From assembly GCA_047601185.1 (NCBI GenBank), contig JASGJS010000001.1, positions 1,153,118 to 1,217,117 on the forward strand: DNA of 64,000 bases. Reading direction: 5' to 3'. Shown here piece by piece: positions 56,987-62,258 of this stretch. The DNA is from Gammaproteobacteria bacterium. GTDB taxonomy: Bacteria > Pseudomonadota > Gammaproteobacteria > JAURND01. Every line of letters starts with the position of its first letter. Position 1 is the first letter of the stretch. Below the pieces are notes generated by a model. That model was not told the origin of the DNA. It saw only the letters and a program-made list of their open reading frames with translations, and did not search any database. Position numbers and translations under genes: made by a program.

Positions 56987-57997
56987 TTACATTTCGGTAG
57001 CTTTTGCCGAGGTGGTGGAATTGGTAGACACGCAAGTTTCAGGTACTTGTGGGGGAAACTCCGTGGAGGTTCGAGTCCTCTTCTCGGCACCAGTATTGCG
57101 TATGAGTCTATTAAAAGCCCGAATCACCATCCCTACGGTAATAAAGTACTTCCAATATTTCTCCTTCCACACGCGTGCAATCAAGGGAAACCACGGCAAT
57201 AAAGCTTCCCCTGCTGTCCAATTAGGTCGCCACCGTGCTCGTACTTTTCGTCGTTGCATCAGCGTCACAGTCGGTACTCCCAAGTTCGAAGCTAAGTGCC
57301 CCAATCCCGAGTCATTGCCAATAAACCAACCTGATTCACTGATGAAACCTGCCACCTCAGCCAAAGTATTAAAAGTTTGAAGGGAAAATTGGTTGGGATC
57401 AATCCAGGTGACTTCAGGTAATTCTGCGGGAGCTACCATAAAAACAGGAGAATACCCTTGTTGTTTTAAACGTTGTGCGAGTTGAATAAAACGCTTCGGC
57501 AGCCAATAACGCGCTTTAAGATGCGCAGTTGGATGAATGATGACGCGATTGGGATATTTTTTAGTGATGAACTCTGTTGGAATCATCAAACCATTTTCCC
57601 GTAAAGGAAGCTTGATGCCAAATAACTGCCGACACATGTTTACCTGTATGTCGATTAAGTGGATCATCGCATGATATTCTGCAAATTGATCAAATGCGAC
57701 AGCGCGAGGGTGCCAGTGATTCGCTTGATGTAGAATATCATGCGTATAACTGTGCAGTAATAATTCCACCGAATGAAAACGCTCCTCAGCTTCAGCGCGT
57801 TGTTGGGGATAAGGTAACAGCGTGATATGCGGAAACCAGTCTTTCAGCATGGCCAAATGGTTGCTAAAAACTGTCACTTGATAGCCGTGCAGCTGCAGAT
57901 TATGAACAATGATCATGGCAATCAACGAGTCTCCTAGTCGTGGAGACATCACCAATCCCACAGAACGGTAAGCTGAGAAGGCGGAATCAATTGTCAT
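56987..57997 (-). CDS. Glycosyltransferase family 9 (LPS heptosyltransferase-like)
   Basis: N-motif SPRLGDSLIAMIIVHNL and C-motif GNDSGLGHLASNLGVPTVTLM. The annotated 3' ~100 nt run antisense through tRNA-Leu(CAG), so the true C-terminus is uncertain. Confidence 0.7.
   Translation of the reverse strand: MTIDSAFSAYRSVGLVMSPRLGDSLIAMIIVHNLQLHGYQVTVFSNHLAMLKDWFPHITLLPYPQQRAEAEERFHSVELLLHSYTHDILHQANHWHPRAVAFDQFAEYHAMIHLIDIQVNMCRQLFGIKLPLRENGLMIPTEFITKKYPNRVIIHPTAHLKARYWLPKRFIQLAQRLKQQGYSPVFMVAPAELPEVTWIDPNQFSLQTFNTLAEVAGFISESGWFIGNDSGLGHLASNLGVPTVTLMQRRKVRARWRPNWTAGEALLPWFPLIARVWKEKYWKYFITVGMVIRAFNRLIRNTGAEKRTRTSTEFPPQVPETCVSTNSTTSAKATEM
57006..57092 (+). tRNA. tRNA-Leu (CAG)
   Basis: 87 nt: GCCGAGG acceptor, D-arm GTGGAATTGGTAG, anticodon loop uuCAGgu, 16-nt variable arm, T-arm GGAGGTTCGAGTCCTCT, CCA. 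Confidence 0.88.
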
Positions 57998-59285
57998 GAT
58001 CTAAAGGATTAGGGTAGCTGGTGATAATGTTATTGACCTTTTTCGTGTATAACGATTTTATTTTTAACGTGATGGTGTCATATAAGTAAGTAGTAGTGAA
58101 CCGCAGTGCCTTCCAAACTCTTTTTAACCAAGGCTTACGTTGAAATTGTAGATTTAATTGATAAACCATATCATCTTCAAATCGACGCAGCCGAATTTTT
58201 TGGTGACAGATCAGGGTATGAACGTTATCTAACCATTTGCTAAAAATTTGTAGACTAGGAGAGGGTGTCGTCTCTTGTTGAGCTTCACGAAATAAAGAAA
58301 GTAATTTAGGAAAATTCCATTGTGATGGTGGACAAGCCAATAGTAAACGTGTCCACTTGGTATAAATAGGATGTAGGTTACTGTCCAATAAAAATATTGG
58401 CGCAAACCTTCTCAGTGCAATAATCTTTCGATGAAAAATTTCATAACTACACATGAGAAAATATAAATAACCTTTAATAAAATGACGATGTTGCTCGATA
58501 GCGCCATAATCAATAAATTTGGGATATTTATTTTCAACCATCAGAATATTTCTGGGATGTAAATCGGTGTGATAATAACCATATTCTTCCAGTATGATGG
58601 CTTGTTGTAATAATGCTTCAACGATAGCCACCGGATCATAAGCCATGCCCATTTTGATCATTTCGCTAATTGCCATGCCAGGCACCTTTTTCCGTAAAAT
58701 CCAACCTTCGTAGGCGTGCAAATGATAAGCGAGCAACTTAGGCGCCAGTTTTTGACTGACCTGTTCATTTGATAAAAAAGCAATTTCGCGGTTTAACTCT
58801 CTATGAATTTTTTGGCCAATTTTTTCAGTTAATTGATAATATTTTAGAATATAATCGGCATTAAAATAATAACGCCGAGAACCATCCATCTTTCCGACCC
58901 ATTCTCTGGTTTGATTTTCTGGAATTTCAAAGCGATCAATATGGCCATTGGCGTACCAATAGAGATTACTGCAAAAGACCAGGACTTTATTCGTTTTAGT
59001 GATAAAAGTTTCACGATAACGATAGAATTTTTTCAAAAAAGGGTCGTTAAAATAGCTTTTGAAGTTTTTAAAATGAAATAAGCCAATGTCTGCAGTTTGA
59101 GATAAATTTTCAACGGCTTCATGTAAATAACTGGGCTTTAATTGATAATAATGAATATTTGAAATAATGTCATAATGCTGTTCTGAGTATGCTTGGTTAG
59201 AAGAATAATCCATTTCGCAGAAATTAAGTATTTTGGGGGAGCGTTGTAAAAAATGGGAGAATTGCTGAATTATTTTTTGTTCCAT
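57987..59285 (-). CDS. Protein-kinase-like superfamily protein, LPS-kinase (Kdo/WaaP)-like, paralogue 1
   Basis: Catalytic-loop-like YHTDLHPRNILMV followed by IDYG (DFG equivalent), plus the shared FCSNLYWYANG block. Overlaps the GT9 start by 11 nt. Confidence 0.55.
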   Translation of the reverse strand: MEQKIIQQFSHFLQRSPKILNFCEMDYSSNQAYSEQHYDIISNIHYYQLKPSYLHEAVENLSQTADIGLFHFKNFKSYFNDPFLKKFYRYRETFITKTNKVLVFCSNLYWYANGHIDRFEIPENQTREWVGKMDGSRRYYFNADYILKYYQLTEKIGQKIHRELNREIAFLSNEQVSQKLAPKLLAYHLHAYEGWILRKKVPGMAISEMIKMGMAYDPVAIVEALLQQAIILEEYGYYHTDLHPRNILMVENKYPKFIDYGAIEQHRHFIKGYLYFLMCSYEIFHRKIIALRRFAPIFLLDSNLHPIYTKWTRLLLACPPSQWNFPKLLSLFREAQQETTPSPSLQIFSKWLDNVHTLICHQKIRLRRFEDDMVYQLNLQFQRKPWLKRVWKALRFTTTYLYDTITLKIKSLYTKKVNNIITSYPNPLDHDN

Positions 59286-59398
59286 GGTTTCTTTTATAAC
59301 CTCCTAATCTGAACTTTAGCTTCAAACTGACTAAAAATGACTAAAGTTTGGATAATATTACGGGCTGTTGCCAGTTAGATTCCACGCAGATTTGAAAT

Positions 59399-60835: not shown

Positions 60836-60836
60836 T

Positions 60837-62258
60837 TTATGTTTTAAATTTTTTTAGAATTAAGGATTTCAGAAACAGCGATAAAGTATCATAACCAATC
60901 AAATAATACTTCTTGATGAAAAACAGCATCCTTTTAAACGCAGGCATTTTACGGTAGTGTAAATTCAGCTGATCGATGATAAAGTACTCAAACCGTTTAA
61001 TATGTAACCGATTTTTCTCGATGAGATGGGTTAGTTTATTAAGCCAGGCTTGAAAATGCTTAGCGTCGAACGTATTCGCCGCAATAGGCGCTTGAGCATT
61101 GATTTGCTGTTGTTGTGCTTGCTGTAACAGCTTATAAAACCGCCCAAAGTTCCACGTATAATGTGGCTGAGCCAAAATCAATTGAACCCATTGATGGTAA
61201 AGTGGGTTAAGCGCATCGTTCATGAGATAAGCGGGGTTAAGCCTGCGATGGCTGATAATTTTGTGATGAAAAATCTCATAACTTAATAAAATAAAAGAAA
61301 AATATCCTTTTAAAAAATGTTTATGCTTATATTCGATTTCCCCATAATCTAACAATGTCGCCTGCCCAGAAGGTAAAATCAGCACATTTTCGGGTCTGAG
61401 ATTAGTATAAAATTGTTTATTTTTTTCCAACGACATTAATAATACTAAAATATTTTGAATAAGATTTAAGGGGTCATAATTGAGATTGTCTTTAAGATAT
61501 CGCACGAAAGGAGTGCCTGGTACGTGTTTACGTAATAACCAGCCTTCGTATGCTCCTATGCTAAAATGAATCAGTTTAGGTGCAAATCCTCCTGTGGCAT
61601 TATTATTGATCAGAAAATCAATTTCACGTTTTAAAGCAATTCTGATATGAGGCTCTGCAAATTGGCAATATTTAAACACATAGTGTGTATTAGTCAGATG
61701 CCGTTTAGGGTTGGCTGAGGTGTCCCGAGATAAGTCACCACTCTCAAAAGTGGCTAAATTACCATTAGCATACCAATAGCGGTTGCTACAAAACATAAAA
61801 ATTACGGGGGTTGAATGCGCAATAATCTCGCGATTAAAATAGCATTGTTTGAAAAATGGGCTATATAGATACAGCTTATAAGTGGAAAATTCATACACAG
61901 CACTGGCACTATGATCCGCGATGAATTGTAGAAAGTGGGTAATGTCTGAGGGATTATGCTTGAGTAAATTACAAATTAACTCGTAATTAATACCCACAAC
62001 TATATCGTAAGTCTCTGAATTCAAAGCTTGTTGAATGAACTCCAGATAGTGGGAAGGTCTTAAGTTAGGGTTGCAGGTGACCTCGACATCTTCAAAATGG
62101 TTGGTGGGGCTTTTGAGATTTAGATAAGGAAAGGTCAAATTTAAGACTTTTATCGGTCTTTTTAAGAAAATTTTGAGATGATGGATTAAAGCATAGAGTA
62201 AGCTGAGGTGGCTCTGCACATTCTTGGCGTGGGAAAGCGGCATTAAATGTTGTGTCAT
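60837..62258 (-). CDS. Protein-kinase-like superfamily protein, paralogue 3
   Basis: FCSNRYWYANG, FYTNLRPENVLIL (catalytic His/Asp replaced by Y..N), LDYG. Confidence 0.5.
   Translation of the reverse strand: MTQHLMPLSHAKNVQSHLSLLYALIHHLKIFLKRPIKVLNLTFPYLNLKSPTNHFEDVEVTCNPNLRPSHYLEFIQQALNSETYDIVVGINYELICNLLKHNPSDITHFLQFIADHSASAVYEFSTYKLYLYSPFFKQCYFNREIIAHSTPVIFMFCSNRYWYANGNLATFESGDLSRDTSANPKRHLTNTHYVFKYCQFAEPHIRIALKREIDFLINNNATGGFAPKLIHFSIGAYEGWLLRKHVPGTPFVRYLKDNLNYDPLNLIQNILVLLMSLEKNKQFYTNLRPENVLILPSGQATLLDYGEIEYKHKHFLKGYFSFILLSYEIFHHKIISHRRLNPAYLMNDALNPLYHQWVQLILAQPHYTWNFGRFYKLLQQAQQQQINAQAPIAANTFDAKHFQAWLNKLTHLIEKNRLHIKRFEYFIIDQLNLHYRKMPAFKRMLFFIKKYYLIGYDTLSLFLKSLILKKFKT

Follow-up and report, generated by a model that had tools for sequence, protein, structure and literature searches.

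An array of four genes on the minus strand of the 64-kb window analysed here, a stretch of contig JASGJS010000001.1 from a Gammaproteobacteria bacterium, encodes three proteins (K3, K2 and K1) that are, as judged by sequence profiles and a structure model, relatives of the WbdD kinase, together with a glycosyltransferase of family 9 (GT9). The three proteins are predicted to carry a non-functional remnant of the WbdD methyltransferase domain, and very little is left of the coiled coil that serves as a ruler in WbdD. What is new here is that such kinases of the WbdD type, devoid of the ruler and of a working methyltransferase, occur in an A/B(+A') array, a pair of types A and B with an extra copy of type A, that is coupled to a glycosyltransferase. 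On balance, the array is probably an operon that modifies a lipid-linked cell-surface glycan, most likely the lipopolysaccharide (LPS) core or a very short O-chain.

WbdD is the textbook coiled-coil "molecular ruler" that ties a terminal phosphate/methyl cap to the chain length of a surface polysaccharide. The enzyme of E. coli O9a phosphorylates the terminal mannose at the non-reducing end of the O-polysaccharide and then adds a methyl group, which ends polymerisation, and the roles of its residues D351, N356, D369 and E274 and of the β3 Lys have been described (PMC3482155). The coiled coil of WbdD sets the length of the glycan, while the membrane is bound through an amphipathic helix at the C-terminal end, which also binds the polymerase (PMC11231755).

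Organisation of the kinase array

The open reading frame (ORF) coordinates give the transcription order K3 > K2 > K1 > GT9. The preliminary description of this DNA had reported a minus-strand array of a GT9 gene and three kinase-like genes, all four ORFs of which were recovered at the same positions, but it placed the kinase genes after the GT9 gene, and they precede it. The K1 and GT9 genes overlap by 11 nt, the K3 and K2 genes are separated by 1 nt and the K2 and K1 genes by 185 nt. The region between K3 and the divergently oriented yraN gene spans 292 nt, and a promoter scan of the sequence upstream of K3 gave no strong sigma-70 consensus. The GC content of the kinase genes is 34–36%, versus ~45% for GT9 and the flanks. 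K2 corresponds to the NCBI protein P0002 and K3 to P0006 in the protein library. K1 (locus tag QM752_06110), like K2, is annotated at NCBI on this contig of 1,712,400 bp. The relatives of RpoD come from MAGs (metagenome-assembled genomes) with identities of up to 78%, and the best named matches, to a Coxiella-labelled MAG (63%) and to Pseudomonas (~61%), did not place the bacterium in an order.

Three motif blocks are shared by the kinase-like proteins. The first is a linker motif that reads FCSNLYWYANG in K1, FCSNHYWYAGG in K2 and FCSNRYWYANG in K3, the second is the catalytic loop (YHTDLHPRNIL, FHTDLRLWNVI and FYTNLRPENVL, respectively), and the third is a DFG-like motif (IDYG in K1 and K2, LDYG in K3). 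All three proteins have the blocks that were first described, although the P.N signature given for the catalytic loop does not hold for K2, which has R-L-W-N at these positions.

Relationship to the WbdD kinase

A profile of the three paralogues was searched against the PDB with hmmsearch and matched the WbdD kinase domain (entries 4UW0, 4AZW and 4AZS) over chain residues 201–450 with an E-value of 3.9e-33 and ~118 bits, and the next matches after WbdD were ordinary protein kinases at E 1e-6. The AlphaFold2 model of K1 (predicted local distance difference test score, pLDDT, of 77.6) likewise had WbdD as its top Foldseek match, with an E-value of 4e-21, 405–475 aligned columns and a template modelling (TM) score of 0.57–0.62, versus ~260–300 columns and a TM-score of ~0.36 for other kinases. 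The model of K3 had a mean pLDDT of 60.9, with the N-lobe of the kinase below 50, and was left out of the fold search. When the family was aligned by hhalign with P0005, a 767-aa methyltransferase-kinase whose gene directly follows wzm/wzt in an O-antigen cluster, the probability was 99.8%. The overall layout resembles that of WbdD from E. coli O9a and K. pneumoniae O3 (PDB 4AZS, 4AZW, 4AX8 and 4UW0), with a Rossmann-type N-domain, a linker strand, the kinase and C-terminal helices.

Pfam and NCBIfam analysis of K1–K3 provided weak, mostly sub-threshold matches to generic kinase models (ABC1, Pkinase, RIO, APH and Bud32), among them ABC1 (E 1.7e-5) and Pkinase (E 2.4e-4) on K2. No match to the Kdo/WaaP family PF06293 was found in Pfam at E<=1 for K1, K2 or K3, and among the NCBIfam WaaP, WaaY and KdkA models the sole match was that of K2 to KdkA (E 0.0069, 15.4 bits vs a cutoff of 142). 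Membership of the Kdo/WaaP or APH families was therefore rejected in favour of WbdD. The protein-kinase-like fold put forward in the preliminary description is supported by the Lys, alpha-C Glu, catalytic-loop Asp/Asn and DFG-like Asp of K1 and K2 and by the WbdD match in both profile and structure, but the likeness to Kdo/WaaP-type kinases that it drew does not extend to family membership, as it is the WbdD kinase domain to which they are clearly related.

Vestigial methyltransferase domain and shortened C-terminal tail

The hhalign alignment of the family with P0005 places columns 16–403 on residues 32–474, with large gaps in the methyltransferase part. The N-terminal stub of K1 retains equivalents of β1 and of β4-αD-β5-αE-β6-β7, and motif I and the β2–β3 region are deleted. 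In the K1 model this part is composed of strands at residues 19–21 and 38–45, a helix at 51–64, a strand at 65–72, two short helices and strands at 90–95 and 101–106. No Pfam methyltransferase match was found in K1–K3 at E<=1. Because the region from motif I to β3 is deleted and Pfam gives no methyltransferase match, the N-terminal ~100–150 aa are predicted to be a vestigial methyltransferase domain that is unable to bind S-adenosylmethionine (SAM), unlike the corresponding domain of WbdD.

Stages of this decay can be followed among short WbdD-like proteins from metagenome-assembled genomes (MAGs) of uncultured Gammaproteobacteria (P0008–P0017). P0008, P0011 and P0012 retain "RPLRVLDLGCAQGFF...GID", which corresponds to SAM motif I and β2, and also "RVLDLGCAQGFF" where K1–K3 have "KILN/KVLNL". 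P0009 is half-decayed, and P0010, P0013–17 and K1–K3 are degenerate, with only "RPLKILNL", "YDLIVGI" and the subsequent helix-strand units left. Family-wide counts of residues, motifs and tails were taken from an alignment (A5) of the 150 best family representatives, of which 118 contain SAM motif I; it occurs in none of the tight family. P0008–P0017 share with K1–K3 the FCSNxYWY linker, the short C-terminal tail and the repeated decay of the methyltransferase. They differ in being stand-alone, single-copy and unpaired genes among housekeeping genes, 25–33% identical to K1–K3, some of them with an intact methyltransferase. In all of them the catalytic Asp is preserved, and so is the counterpart of WbdD W355, a Trp (Gly in P0013).

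The part following the kinase domain is 77–98 aa long in K1–K3, versus a median of 214 aa over the 150 representatives. In the K1 model it forms helices at residues 343–360, 366–379 and 386–423, and no long coiled coil follows the kinase domain. The tails of K1–K3 contain no transmembrane segment, and the hydrophobic moment of their C-terminal helices was not outstanding in an amphipathic-helix test; the net charge over the last 60 aa is +7 in K1, +12 in K2 and +10 in K3. Compared with WbdD, which is ~708 aa long, the proteins are reduced to 432–473 aa, with the coiled coil and polymerase-recruitment region almost gone. Both the distinct N-terminal domain of ~150 aa suspected earlier and the length of about twice that of KdkA/WaaP can be accounted for in this way: the hhalign match to P0005 and the K1 model identify the former as the vestigial methyltransferase, and this domain together with the C-terminal helical tail, both derived from a WbdD-like ancestor, would make up the additional length.

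Catalytic residues and the K3 pseudokinase candidate

The profile alignment to WbdD keeps the WbdD numbering, and H349-D350-D351...W355-N356 were checked against the positions given in the WbdD paper. Residues D241, N246 and D259 of K1 align with D351, N356 and D369 of WbdD, and E163 aligns with E274; K148 is the β3 Lys and E167 the alpha-C Glu. K1 and K2 hold all of these residues and, as in WbdD, the activation loop is short. The degenerate loop of K3 has Tyr in place of the His, Asn instead of the catalytic Asp and Glu for the W355-equivalent Trp, and an Ala stands at the position of E274. K3 keeps the β3 Lys, the alpha-C Glu and the equivalents of N356 and D369. The preliminary description had called the third paralogue (YTNLRPEN) a probable pseudokinase next to two with HxD, which agrees with the Asn and Ala of K3 and the intact residues of K1 and K2. 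K3 is thus a strong candidate for a pseudokinase, in which nucleotide binding may survive because Lys, alpha-C Glu and Asn are kept along with the Asp of DYG.

The catalytic Asp is kept in 148 of the 150 representatives, the exceptions being K3 (Asn) and P0004 (Lys, loop HIKLRPRN). With a Lys at this position, P0004 is predicted to be a stand-alone pseudokinase of the family in another MAG. P0003, a type A protein encoded on the metagenome contig L004, keeps HTD, and the loss of the Asp in K3 therefore appears to be lineage-specific; it coincides with the presence of K1 as a type A copy predicted to be active.

The acceptor site is less well preserved. In WbdD, Y230 and W355 are the acceptor-binding residues that recognise mannose, the Trp stacking on the Tyr. 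In the sequence alignment WbdD Y230 has no equivalent and is aligned with an Arg or His in a conserved [ST][RH] motif, and the position of W355 is occupied by Arg in K1, Trp in K2 and Glu in K3. Because the Y230 equivalent is missing and the W355 Trp is replaced in type A, the acceptor sugar probably differs from that of WbdD.

Paralogy, rarity and origin of the three copies

BLASTP comparison of the three proteins gave 32% identity for K1 and K2 (E 1e-53), 34% for K1 and K3 (E 1e-74) and 28% for K2 and K3 (E 8e-35), values that agree with the earlier estimate of about 30% and place their paralogy, as judged by sequence, far beyond chance. Fifty columns are invariant over the five proteins of alignment A2 (K1, K2, K3, P0003 and P0004). 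For the family census, 1.84 billion cluster representatives were scanned exhaustively with HMMER; 1488 relatives had E<=1e-3, and 178 of these reached E<=1e-30. Scores of >=340 bits were confined to six proteins (K1, K2, K3, P0003, P0004 and P0007), and ~10 further short relatives with the FCSNxYWY motif scored 200–280 bits. The close relatives come from uncultured Gammaproteobacteria only.

A neighbour-joining tree with 300 bootstraps divides the six proteins into type A (K1, K3, P0003 and P0004) and type B (K2 and P0007), each with a bootstrap of 1.0, and the six group together at 0.99. Within the type A clade K3 groups with P0003 (bootstrap 0.77). The L004 contig encodes P0003 (type A) followed with zero gap by P0007 (type B), and a gene for a 295-aa DxD protein, weakly GT8-like (E 3e-4), overlaps P0007 by 4 nt downstream. 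Because L004 repeats the A-then-B order with a glycosyltransferase-like gene, the ancestral unit is proposed to be A-B-glycosyltransferase, represented here by K3-K2...GT9, with K1 as an additional type A copy. The tree and the order of genes in L004 thus replace the simple but unusual triplication of the preliminary description by an old A/B pair (K3-K2) and an extra copy of type A (K1), an arrangement that also sets the array apart from WbdD. Two further candidates in L004 were rejected: the partial ORF upstream of P0003 is unrelated and is not a third paralogue, and the 295-aa gene is not an orthologue of the GT9 gene, to which it shows no similarity.

The only single-copy close relative is P0004 (L001, 10001–11362), next to which are encoded a 496-aa protein that has no significant match in Pfam, a transposase and an ankyrin-repeat protein of 815 aa. 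Among the short relatives, P0012 is flanked by ybeY and ftsK and P0014 by a Lon-like protease and bamD, and P0008 adjoins an MsbA-type ABC exporter gene. Other short relatives are near ankyrin-repeat or Ser-rich proteins, and transposase genes also occur at the loci of relatives.

The GT9 glycosyltransferase and tRNA-Leu(CAG)

The GT9 call of the preliminary description is upheld by a match to Pfam PF01075 (E 1.9e-12, 47.5 bits vs a cutoff of 22). A set of 468 homologues of ~300–320 aa aligns with residues 1 to ~302, and the sequence GNDSGLGHLAS and 60 invariant columns are common to GT9 and eight homologues. The protein falls below every NCBIfam equivalog cutoff for heptosyltransferases (WaaC, WaaF and WaaQ), the best being heptosyltransferase III with 35.4 bits vs 170, and for this reason it is placed, on sequence grounds, in a distinct GT9 subfamily. 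The exact GT9 protein was absent among the 120 matches listed in a large protein search, the best listed match having 54% identity.

Relatives of this GT9 protein are connected to LPS genes. The gene of P0160 directly follows a WaaL-type (Wzy_C) gene in L015, P0200 (526 aa) is a fusion with a WaaL/Wzy_C ligase domain, and P0210 (L016, 4155–5762, 535 aa) is a fusion with a Kdo/WaaP-type kinase of PF06293. The cluster around P0210 in L016 contains two more GT9 genes, a GT2 gene, waaL, hldE and hldD. The two fusions are useful Rosetta-stone links that would place the subfamily in LPS core assembly. Because P0210 is fused to a PF06293 kinase within a core cluster, the partnership of GT9 and kinase appears to be recurrent in this subfamily, with a kinase partner from the WbdD family in the present case.

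The waaP-wapP-wapQ-PA5006 genes of P. aeruginosa lie in one operon with waaF/waaC (PMC3147165), and by this analogy there is a precedent for LPS kinase genes arranged in tandem next to GT9 genes. The WaaP/WaaY/KdkA kinases of PF06293 thus resemble K1–K3 in their protein-kinase-like fold and in the co-transcription of tandem paralogues with GT9 heptosyltransferase genes, but K1–K3 have no significant PF06293 match, are about twice as long and possess extra N- and C-terminal domains of the WbdD type. The co-transcription of K1 and GT9, read from their 11-nt overlap, is a context held in common with the Kdo/WaaP systems and is not evidence of membership.

A tRNA-Leu(CAG) gene is located antisense to the end of GT9, with a promoter-like TTGACA-17-TACATT at 56965–56993. 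The final ~34 codons of the GT9 ORF, a non-homologous tail, come from reading the whole tRNA gene in antisense, and GT9 homologues end ~5–25 aa past the last conserved block. Because the conserved blocks reach the normal C-terminus and only the tail is tRNA antisense, the enzyme is predicted to be intact with a read-through tail. Truncation or pseudogenisation of GT9 by the tRNA gene was rejected on the same grounds. The drop in GC content and the adjacent tRNA prompted consideration of a genomic island integrated at tRNA-Leu, which was found to be without support. No second copy of the tRNA-Leu 3' end was found in the window at <=3 mismatches, no integrase is present, and no tRNA lies beside the homologues; the GT9 gene adjoining the tRNA is full-length and of native GC content, which speaks against an island. 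An Rfam scan of the 64-kb window returned three tRNAs and nothing else.

Proposed function and alternative explanations

The substrate, membrane tethering, oligomerisation and role of K3 in a glycan-modifying operon are proposed as follows. K1 and K2 would be ATP-dependent sugar kinases descended from a methyltransferase-kinase-coiled-coil ancestor, the ruler of which would have been reduced to ~80–100 aa of helices ending in a basic, aromatic-rich segment. The basic C-terminal helices would hold the catalytic domain of K1 and K2 near the cytoplasmic face of the inner membrane, where the kinase would move the γ-phosphate of ATP to a hydroxyl of a sugar near the lipid anchor. In K1, Lys148 and Glu167 would position the ATP, Asn246 and Asp259 would bind Mg2+, and Asp241 would be the base. 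The near-absent spacer, taken together with the ruler logic of WbdD, points to action on the lipid A-core or a very short lipid-linked glycan, and the phosphate may be placed at one or two positions on or beside the residue added by the co-transcribed GT9, in place of the mannosyltransferase polymerase that is the partner of WbdD. Types A and B may be ancient partners with different target positions, or they may form a hetero-oligomer, which is considered because WbdD is trimeric. Since the catalytic Asp and the Glu that binds Mg and sugar are lost, K3 probably has no catalytic role and serves as a structural or regulatory subunit, and the loss of activity may be tolerated because K1 is a second type A copy that is predicted to be active.

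Several observations weigh against this proposal. Neither the 64-kb window, out of a contig of at least 1.71 Mb, nor the surroundings of the closest homologues yielded wzm/wzt, waaL, hldE or any other LPS gene, and the lack of adjacent wzm/wzt is a further difference from WbdD. A tblastn search near the kinases for wzm and wzt (queries from L003), waaL, hldE, waaC and GT2, with the low-complexity filter off, returned nothing relevant, with a single weak wzt match in L008. The low GC content of the kinase genes relative to GT9 indicates that the partnership may be recent, and dispersed repeat elements are present at both kinase-kinase junctions. The GT8 match of the 295-aa gene in L004 falls below the Pfam threshold. 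The nearest relatives stand alone among housekeeping or effector-like genes (L001, L007, L008 and L017), and the acceptor residues of WbdD are not conserved, so that by sequence comparison the substrate is not readable from WbdD. Kinases directed at a host are also conceivable, as the relatives of this bacterium carry ankyrin-repeat and Ser-rich proteins.

The alternative that survives best, although it is rather unlikely, regards K1–K3 as kinase-only chain terminators for an ABC-transporter-dependent O-polysaccharide or another polymer, with wzm/wzt and the polymerase elsewhere in the 1.7-Mb genome and the adjacency of GT9 incidental. WbdD, the only characterised relative, does exactly this, and phosphorylation alone ends chains (PMC3482155). 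The position of the more distant homologue P0005 behind wzm/wzt also favours termination, as do the GC values, which suggest separate origins of the kinase and GT9 genes. However, the coiled-coil ruler and polymerase-recruitment region are cut to <100 aa, wzm/wzt genes are missing from the window and from beside any of the closest homologues, and overlaps of the translational-coupling type with a glycosyltransferase gene occur in two independent genomes.

A more elaborate form of the glycan-modifying operon can be envisaged as a speculation that is itself unlikely to hold in full. K1, K2 and K3 would form a WbdD-like hetero-trimer through their C-terminal helices, a "zero-length ruler" on the inner membrane that recruits GT9 and adds phosphates at two different places to an LPS core sugar near the membrane; the WbdD scaffold would replace WaaP/WaaY in this lineage, with the pseudokinase as organiser. 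An alternative to such a hetero-trimer is a WbdD scaffold turned into host-directed effectors. The WbdD-derived kinases and the glycosyltransferase would then be secreted onto host targets in an intracellular Legionellales-like bacterium, and K3 would be a pseudokinase scaffold. This appears distinctly improbable. It would suit the AT-rich and patchy nature of the genes, with only six close members in the census, the ankyrin-repeat, Ser-rich and transposase genes at the loci of relatives, and the Sel1-repeat and poly-Ser proteins of the window, and effector kinases commonly include expanded sets of paralogues and pseudokinases. Against it, the proteins resemble WbdD, which is a sugar kinase of the cytoplasm, far more strongly than any protein kinase, the activation loop is short as in WbdD, the subfamily of the GT9 partner is embedded in LPS-core clusters, and no secretion system or secretion signal was identified in this analysis. 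A survey of the Legionella kinome can be read in either direction, as it treats a WbdD-like kinase-methyltransferase once annotated as an effector and judges it to be probably a housekeeping LPS enzyme (PMC9758233). This Lcin_0519-type protein resembles the present case in linking a kinase and methyltransferase to LPS genes in an intracellular gammaproteobacterium, and differs, by its authors' description, in belonging to a separate family that is only remotely related to WbdD (PMC9758233).

A PD-T4-6-like Ser/Thr kinase locus for anti-phage defence, or genes decaying to pseudogenes in a repeat-ridden reduced genome, is very improbable: the matches to PD-T4-6 in PADLOC (K2 E 1e-8 at 32.6 bits, K1 E 6e-6) are weak and, like all those in the PADLOC and PHROG phage libraries, cover the generic kinase core only, at 20–33 bits vs ~118 bits to WbdD and with no strong full-length match, and the signs of decay (repeats at the two junctions between kinase genes and within the 5' end of K2, the lost catalytic residues of K3 and the low confidence of its model) are outweighed by three ORFs intact over 432–473 codons, the 50 columns invariant from K1–K3 to P0003 and P0004, an in-frame repeat insertion that keeps K2 open and an A-B order conserved in a second organism.

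Should K1–K3 act jointly with GT9 on the LPS core, the WaaP/WaaY/KdkA kinases would have in them a non-orthologous replacement; outer-membrane integrity in bacteria like P. aeruginosa requires WaaP/WaaY kinases. The locus may represent what remains once the ruler and the methyltransferase decay, a compact and proposedly membrane-proximal kinase module that was duplicated into the conserved types A and B and yielded a pseudokinase candidate. The family would therefore be a natural test of the ruler model, which predicts a shorter glycan substrate for a shorter coiled coil, and it offers a bacterial sugar-kinase example for pseudokinase biology. Its extreme rarity and restriction to uncultured Gammaproteobacteria limit the practical impact until the host is grown or the proteins are expressed.

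Neighbouring genes and repeat elements

The features of the array and its surroundings are listed in Table 1.

Table 1. Features of the K3-K2-K1-GT9 array and adjoining elements, in positions of the 64-kb window
Feature	Position	Strand	Evidence
K3, type A WbdD-like protein, 473 aa, pseudokinase candidate, first gene	60837-62258	-	ORF
K3 degenerate catalytic loop FYTNLRPENVL	61380-61412	-	Motif and family alignment
K2, type B WbdD-like kinase, 454 aa, catalytic residues intact (HTD...WN...DYG)	59471-60835	-	ORF, Pfam, tree
K1, type A WbdD-like kinase, 432 aa, catalytic residues intact	57987-59285	-	ORF
K1 residues ~1-100, predicted vestigial class-I methyltransferase-like domain	58986-59285	-	hhalign, relatives, secondary structure
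K1 residues ~101-335, FCSNxYWYA linker strand, then kinase domain	58281-58985	-	PDB profile, motif coordinates
K1 residues ~336-432, three helices, the last long, basic and aromatic-rich; proposed membrane-proximal tail	57990-58280	-	K1 model, charge
GT9 glycosyltransferase (heptosyltransferase-type), 336 aa, last gene of array	56987-57997	-	ORF, PF01075, homologue alignment
tRNA-Leu(CAG), antisense to GT9 end	57006-57092	+	ARAGORN; Rfam tRNA 49.2 bits
Second, diverged copy of the K2 repeat family, in the K2-K1 spacer	59387-59462	.	Repeat comparison
Dispersed ~60-100 nt palindromic repeat copy, in frame in K2 5' end	60760-60822	.	Repeat comparison
~160-nt palindromic repeat resembling a miniature inverted-repeat transposable element (MITE) or repetitive extragenic palindromic (REP) element, fills most of the K3-yraN region	62295-62454	.	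Inverted-repeat comparison
SIS-domain protein, GmhA-type	63089-63703	+	NCBIfam NF010546

Immediately past the array come yraN, the SIS gene and the first part of dolP. The SIS protein scored 318.6 bits against the phosphoheptose isomerase model NF010546 (cutoff 276) and 229 bits against the DiaA model (cutoff 352). Its phosphoheptose-isomerase-type gene is 0.8 kb from the array, and the protein is a possible supplier of heptose precursor, but the gene does not belong to the operon. The diaA/gmhA-like and dolP neighbours had been taken to suggest phosphorylation of core sugars. Their location was given correctly and the SIS protein passes the isomerase cutoff, but yraN-SIS-dolP is a conserved housekeeping trio and not an LPS-core cluster. 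A link to LPS is plausible through GT9.

The ~160-nt palindromic repeat upstream of K3 has an inverted partner at 49387–49546 (86% complementary) and a partial copy at 2099–2213. This family of imperfect palindromes (arms AGGAGGCGTCGTCC...GGACGACGCCTCCT) recurs downstream of tgt/yajC and near rpoD. The repeat at the 5' end of K2 is 100% identical to 11011–11070 and encodes ~22 aa of the protein, residues ~5–26 (ITPHPPYRAPSPTRGEGNSSPQ). No other in-frame ATG, GTG or TTG precedes the conserved part of K2, and the insertion leaves the reading frame open. Further copies are located at 10968–11074, 20381–20456, 37492–37596, 45004–45063 and 55712–55775, and the family, with the core ...CCTTCTCCCACAAGGGGAGAAGG..., has at least seven copies in the window.

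A third repeat family consists of GC-rich hairpins (CTTGGGAGCGCGGGCTGCTAGCCCGCTGCTTTT) at 3952–4046, 45969–46008, 46190–46231, 52415–52934, 53687–53731, 53821–53901 and 62942–63067. Three tandem 140-nt units of this family are found between secF and plsY (52484–52913). The hairpins look like REP or terminator-like elements after genes.

Other features of the window

On the minus strand, in the regions 11872–13035 and 13075–13926, a tetratricopeptide-repeat (TPR) ORF has a C-terminal part that by eye resembles the beginning of a GT9-type domain (...GNGDAFQMIRYLPLL...). Its end lies just before a transposase gene of the IS3 type, by which it may have been truncated. A Sel1-repeat ORF (11366–12085) overlaps the TPR-repeat ORF on the opposite strand. 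Identical segments of IS3-family transposase genes are found at 20508–20807 and 26339–26638 (ORFs 20547–21281 and 26378–27112), 5.8 kb apart. This pair brackets two transporters of the major facilitator superfamily (MFS) type and a small membrane protein, and may be a composite element.

The low-GC region at 27512–36658 encodes, by eye, several MFS-type transporters, a methyltransferase-like ORF, an ATP-grasp-like ORF (34310–35578) and a 343-aa unidentified ORF, and could be an island for small-molecule biosynthesis and export. On the minus strand at 42117–44039 is encoded a 640-aa protein with a long poly-Ser tract, Lys-rich and Pro-rich low-complexity segments and no obvious domain, which looks effector-like and would be consistent with a host-associated lifestyle. 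Between these regions, at 37685–42088, a cyanophycin synthetase-like protein (876 aa), a cyanophycinase-like protein and an isoaspartyl dipeptidase/asparaginase-like protein were recognised by eye in a row, which would be a complete module for making and breaking cyanophycin on a contig of ~1.7 Mb.

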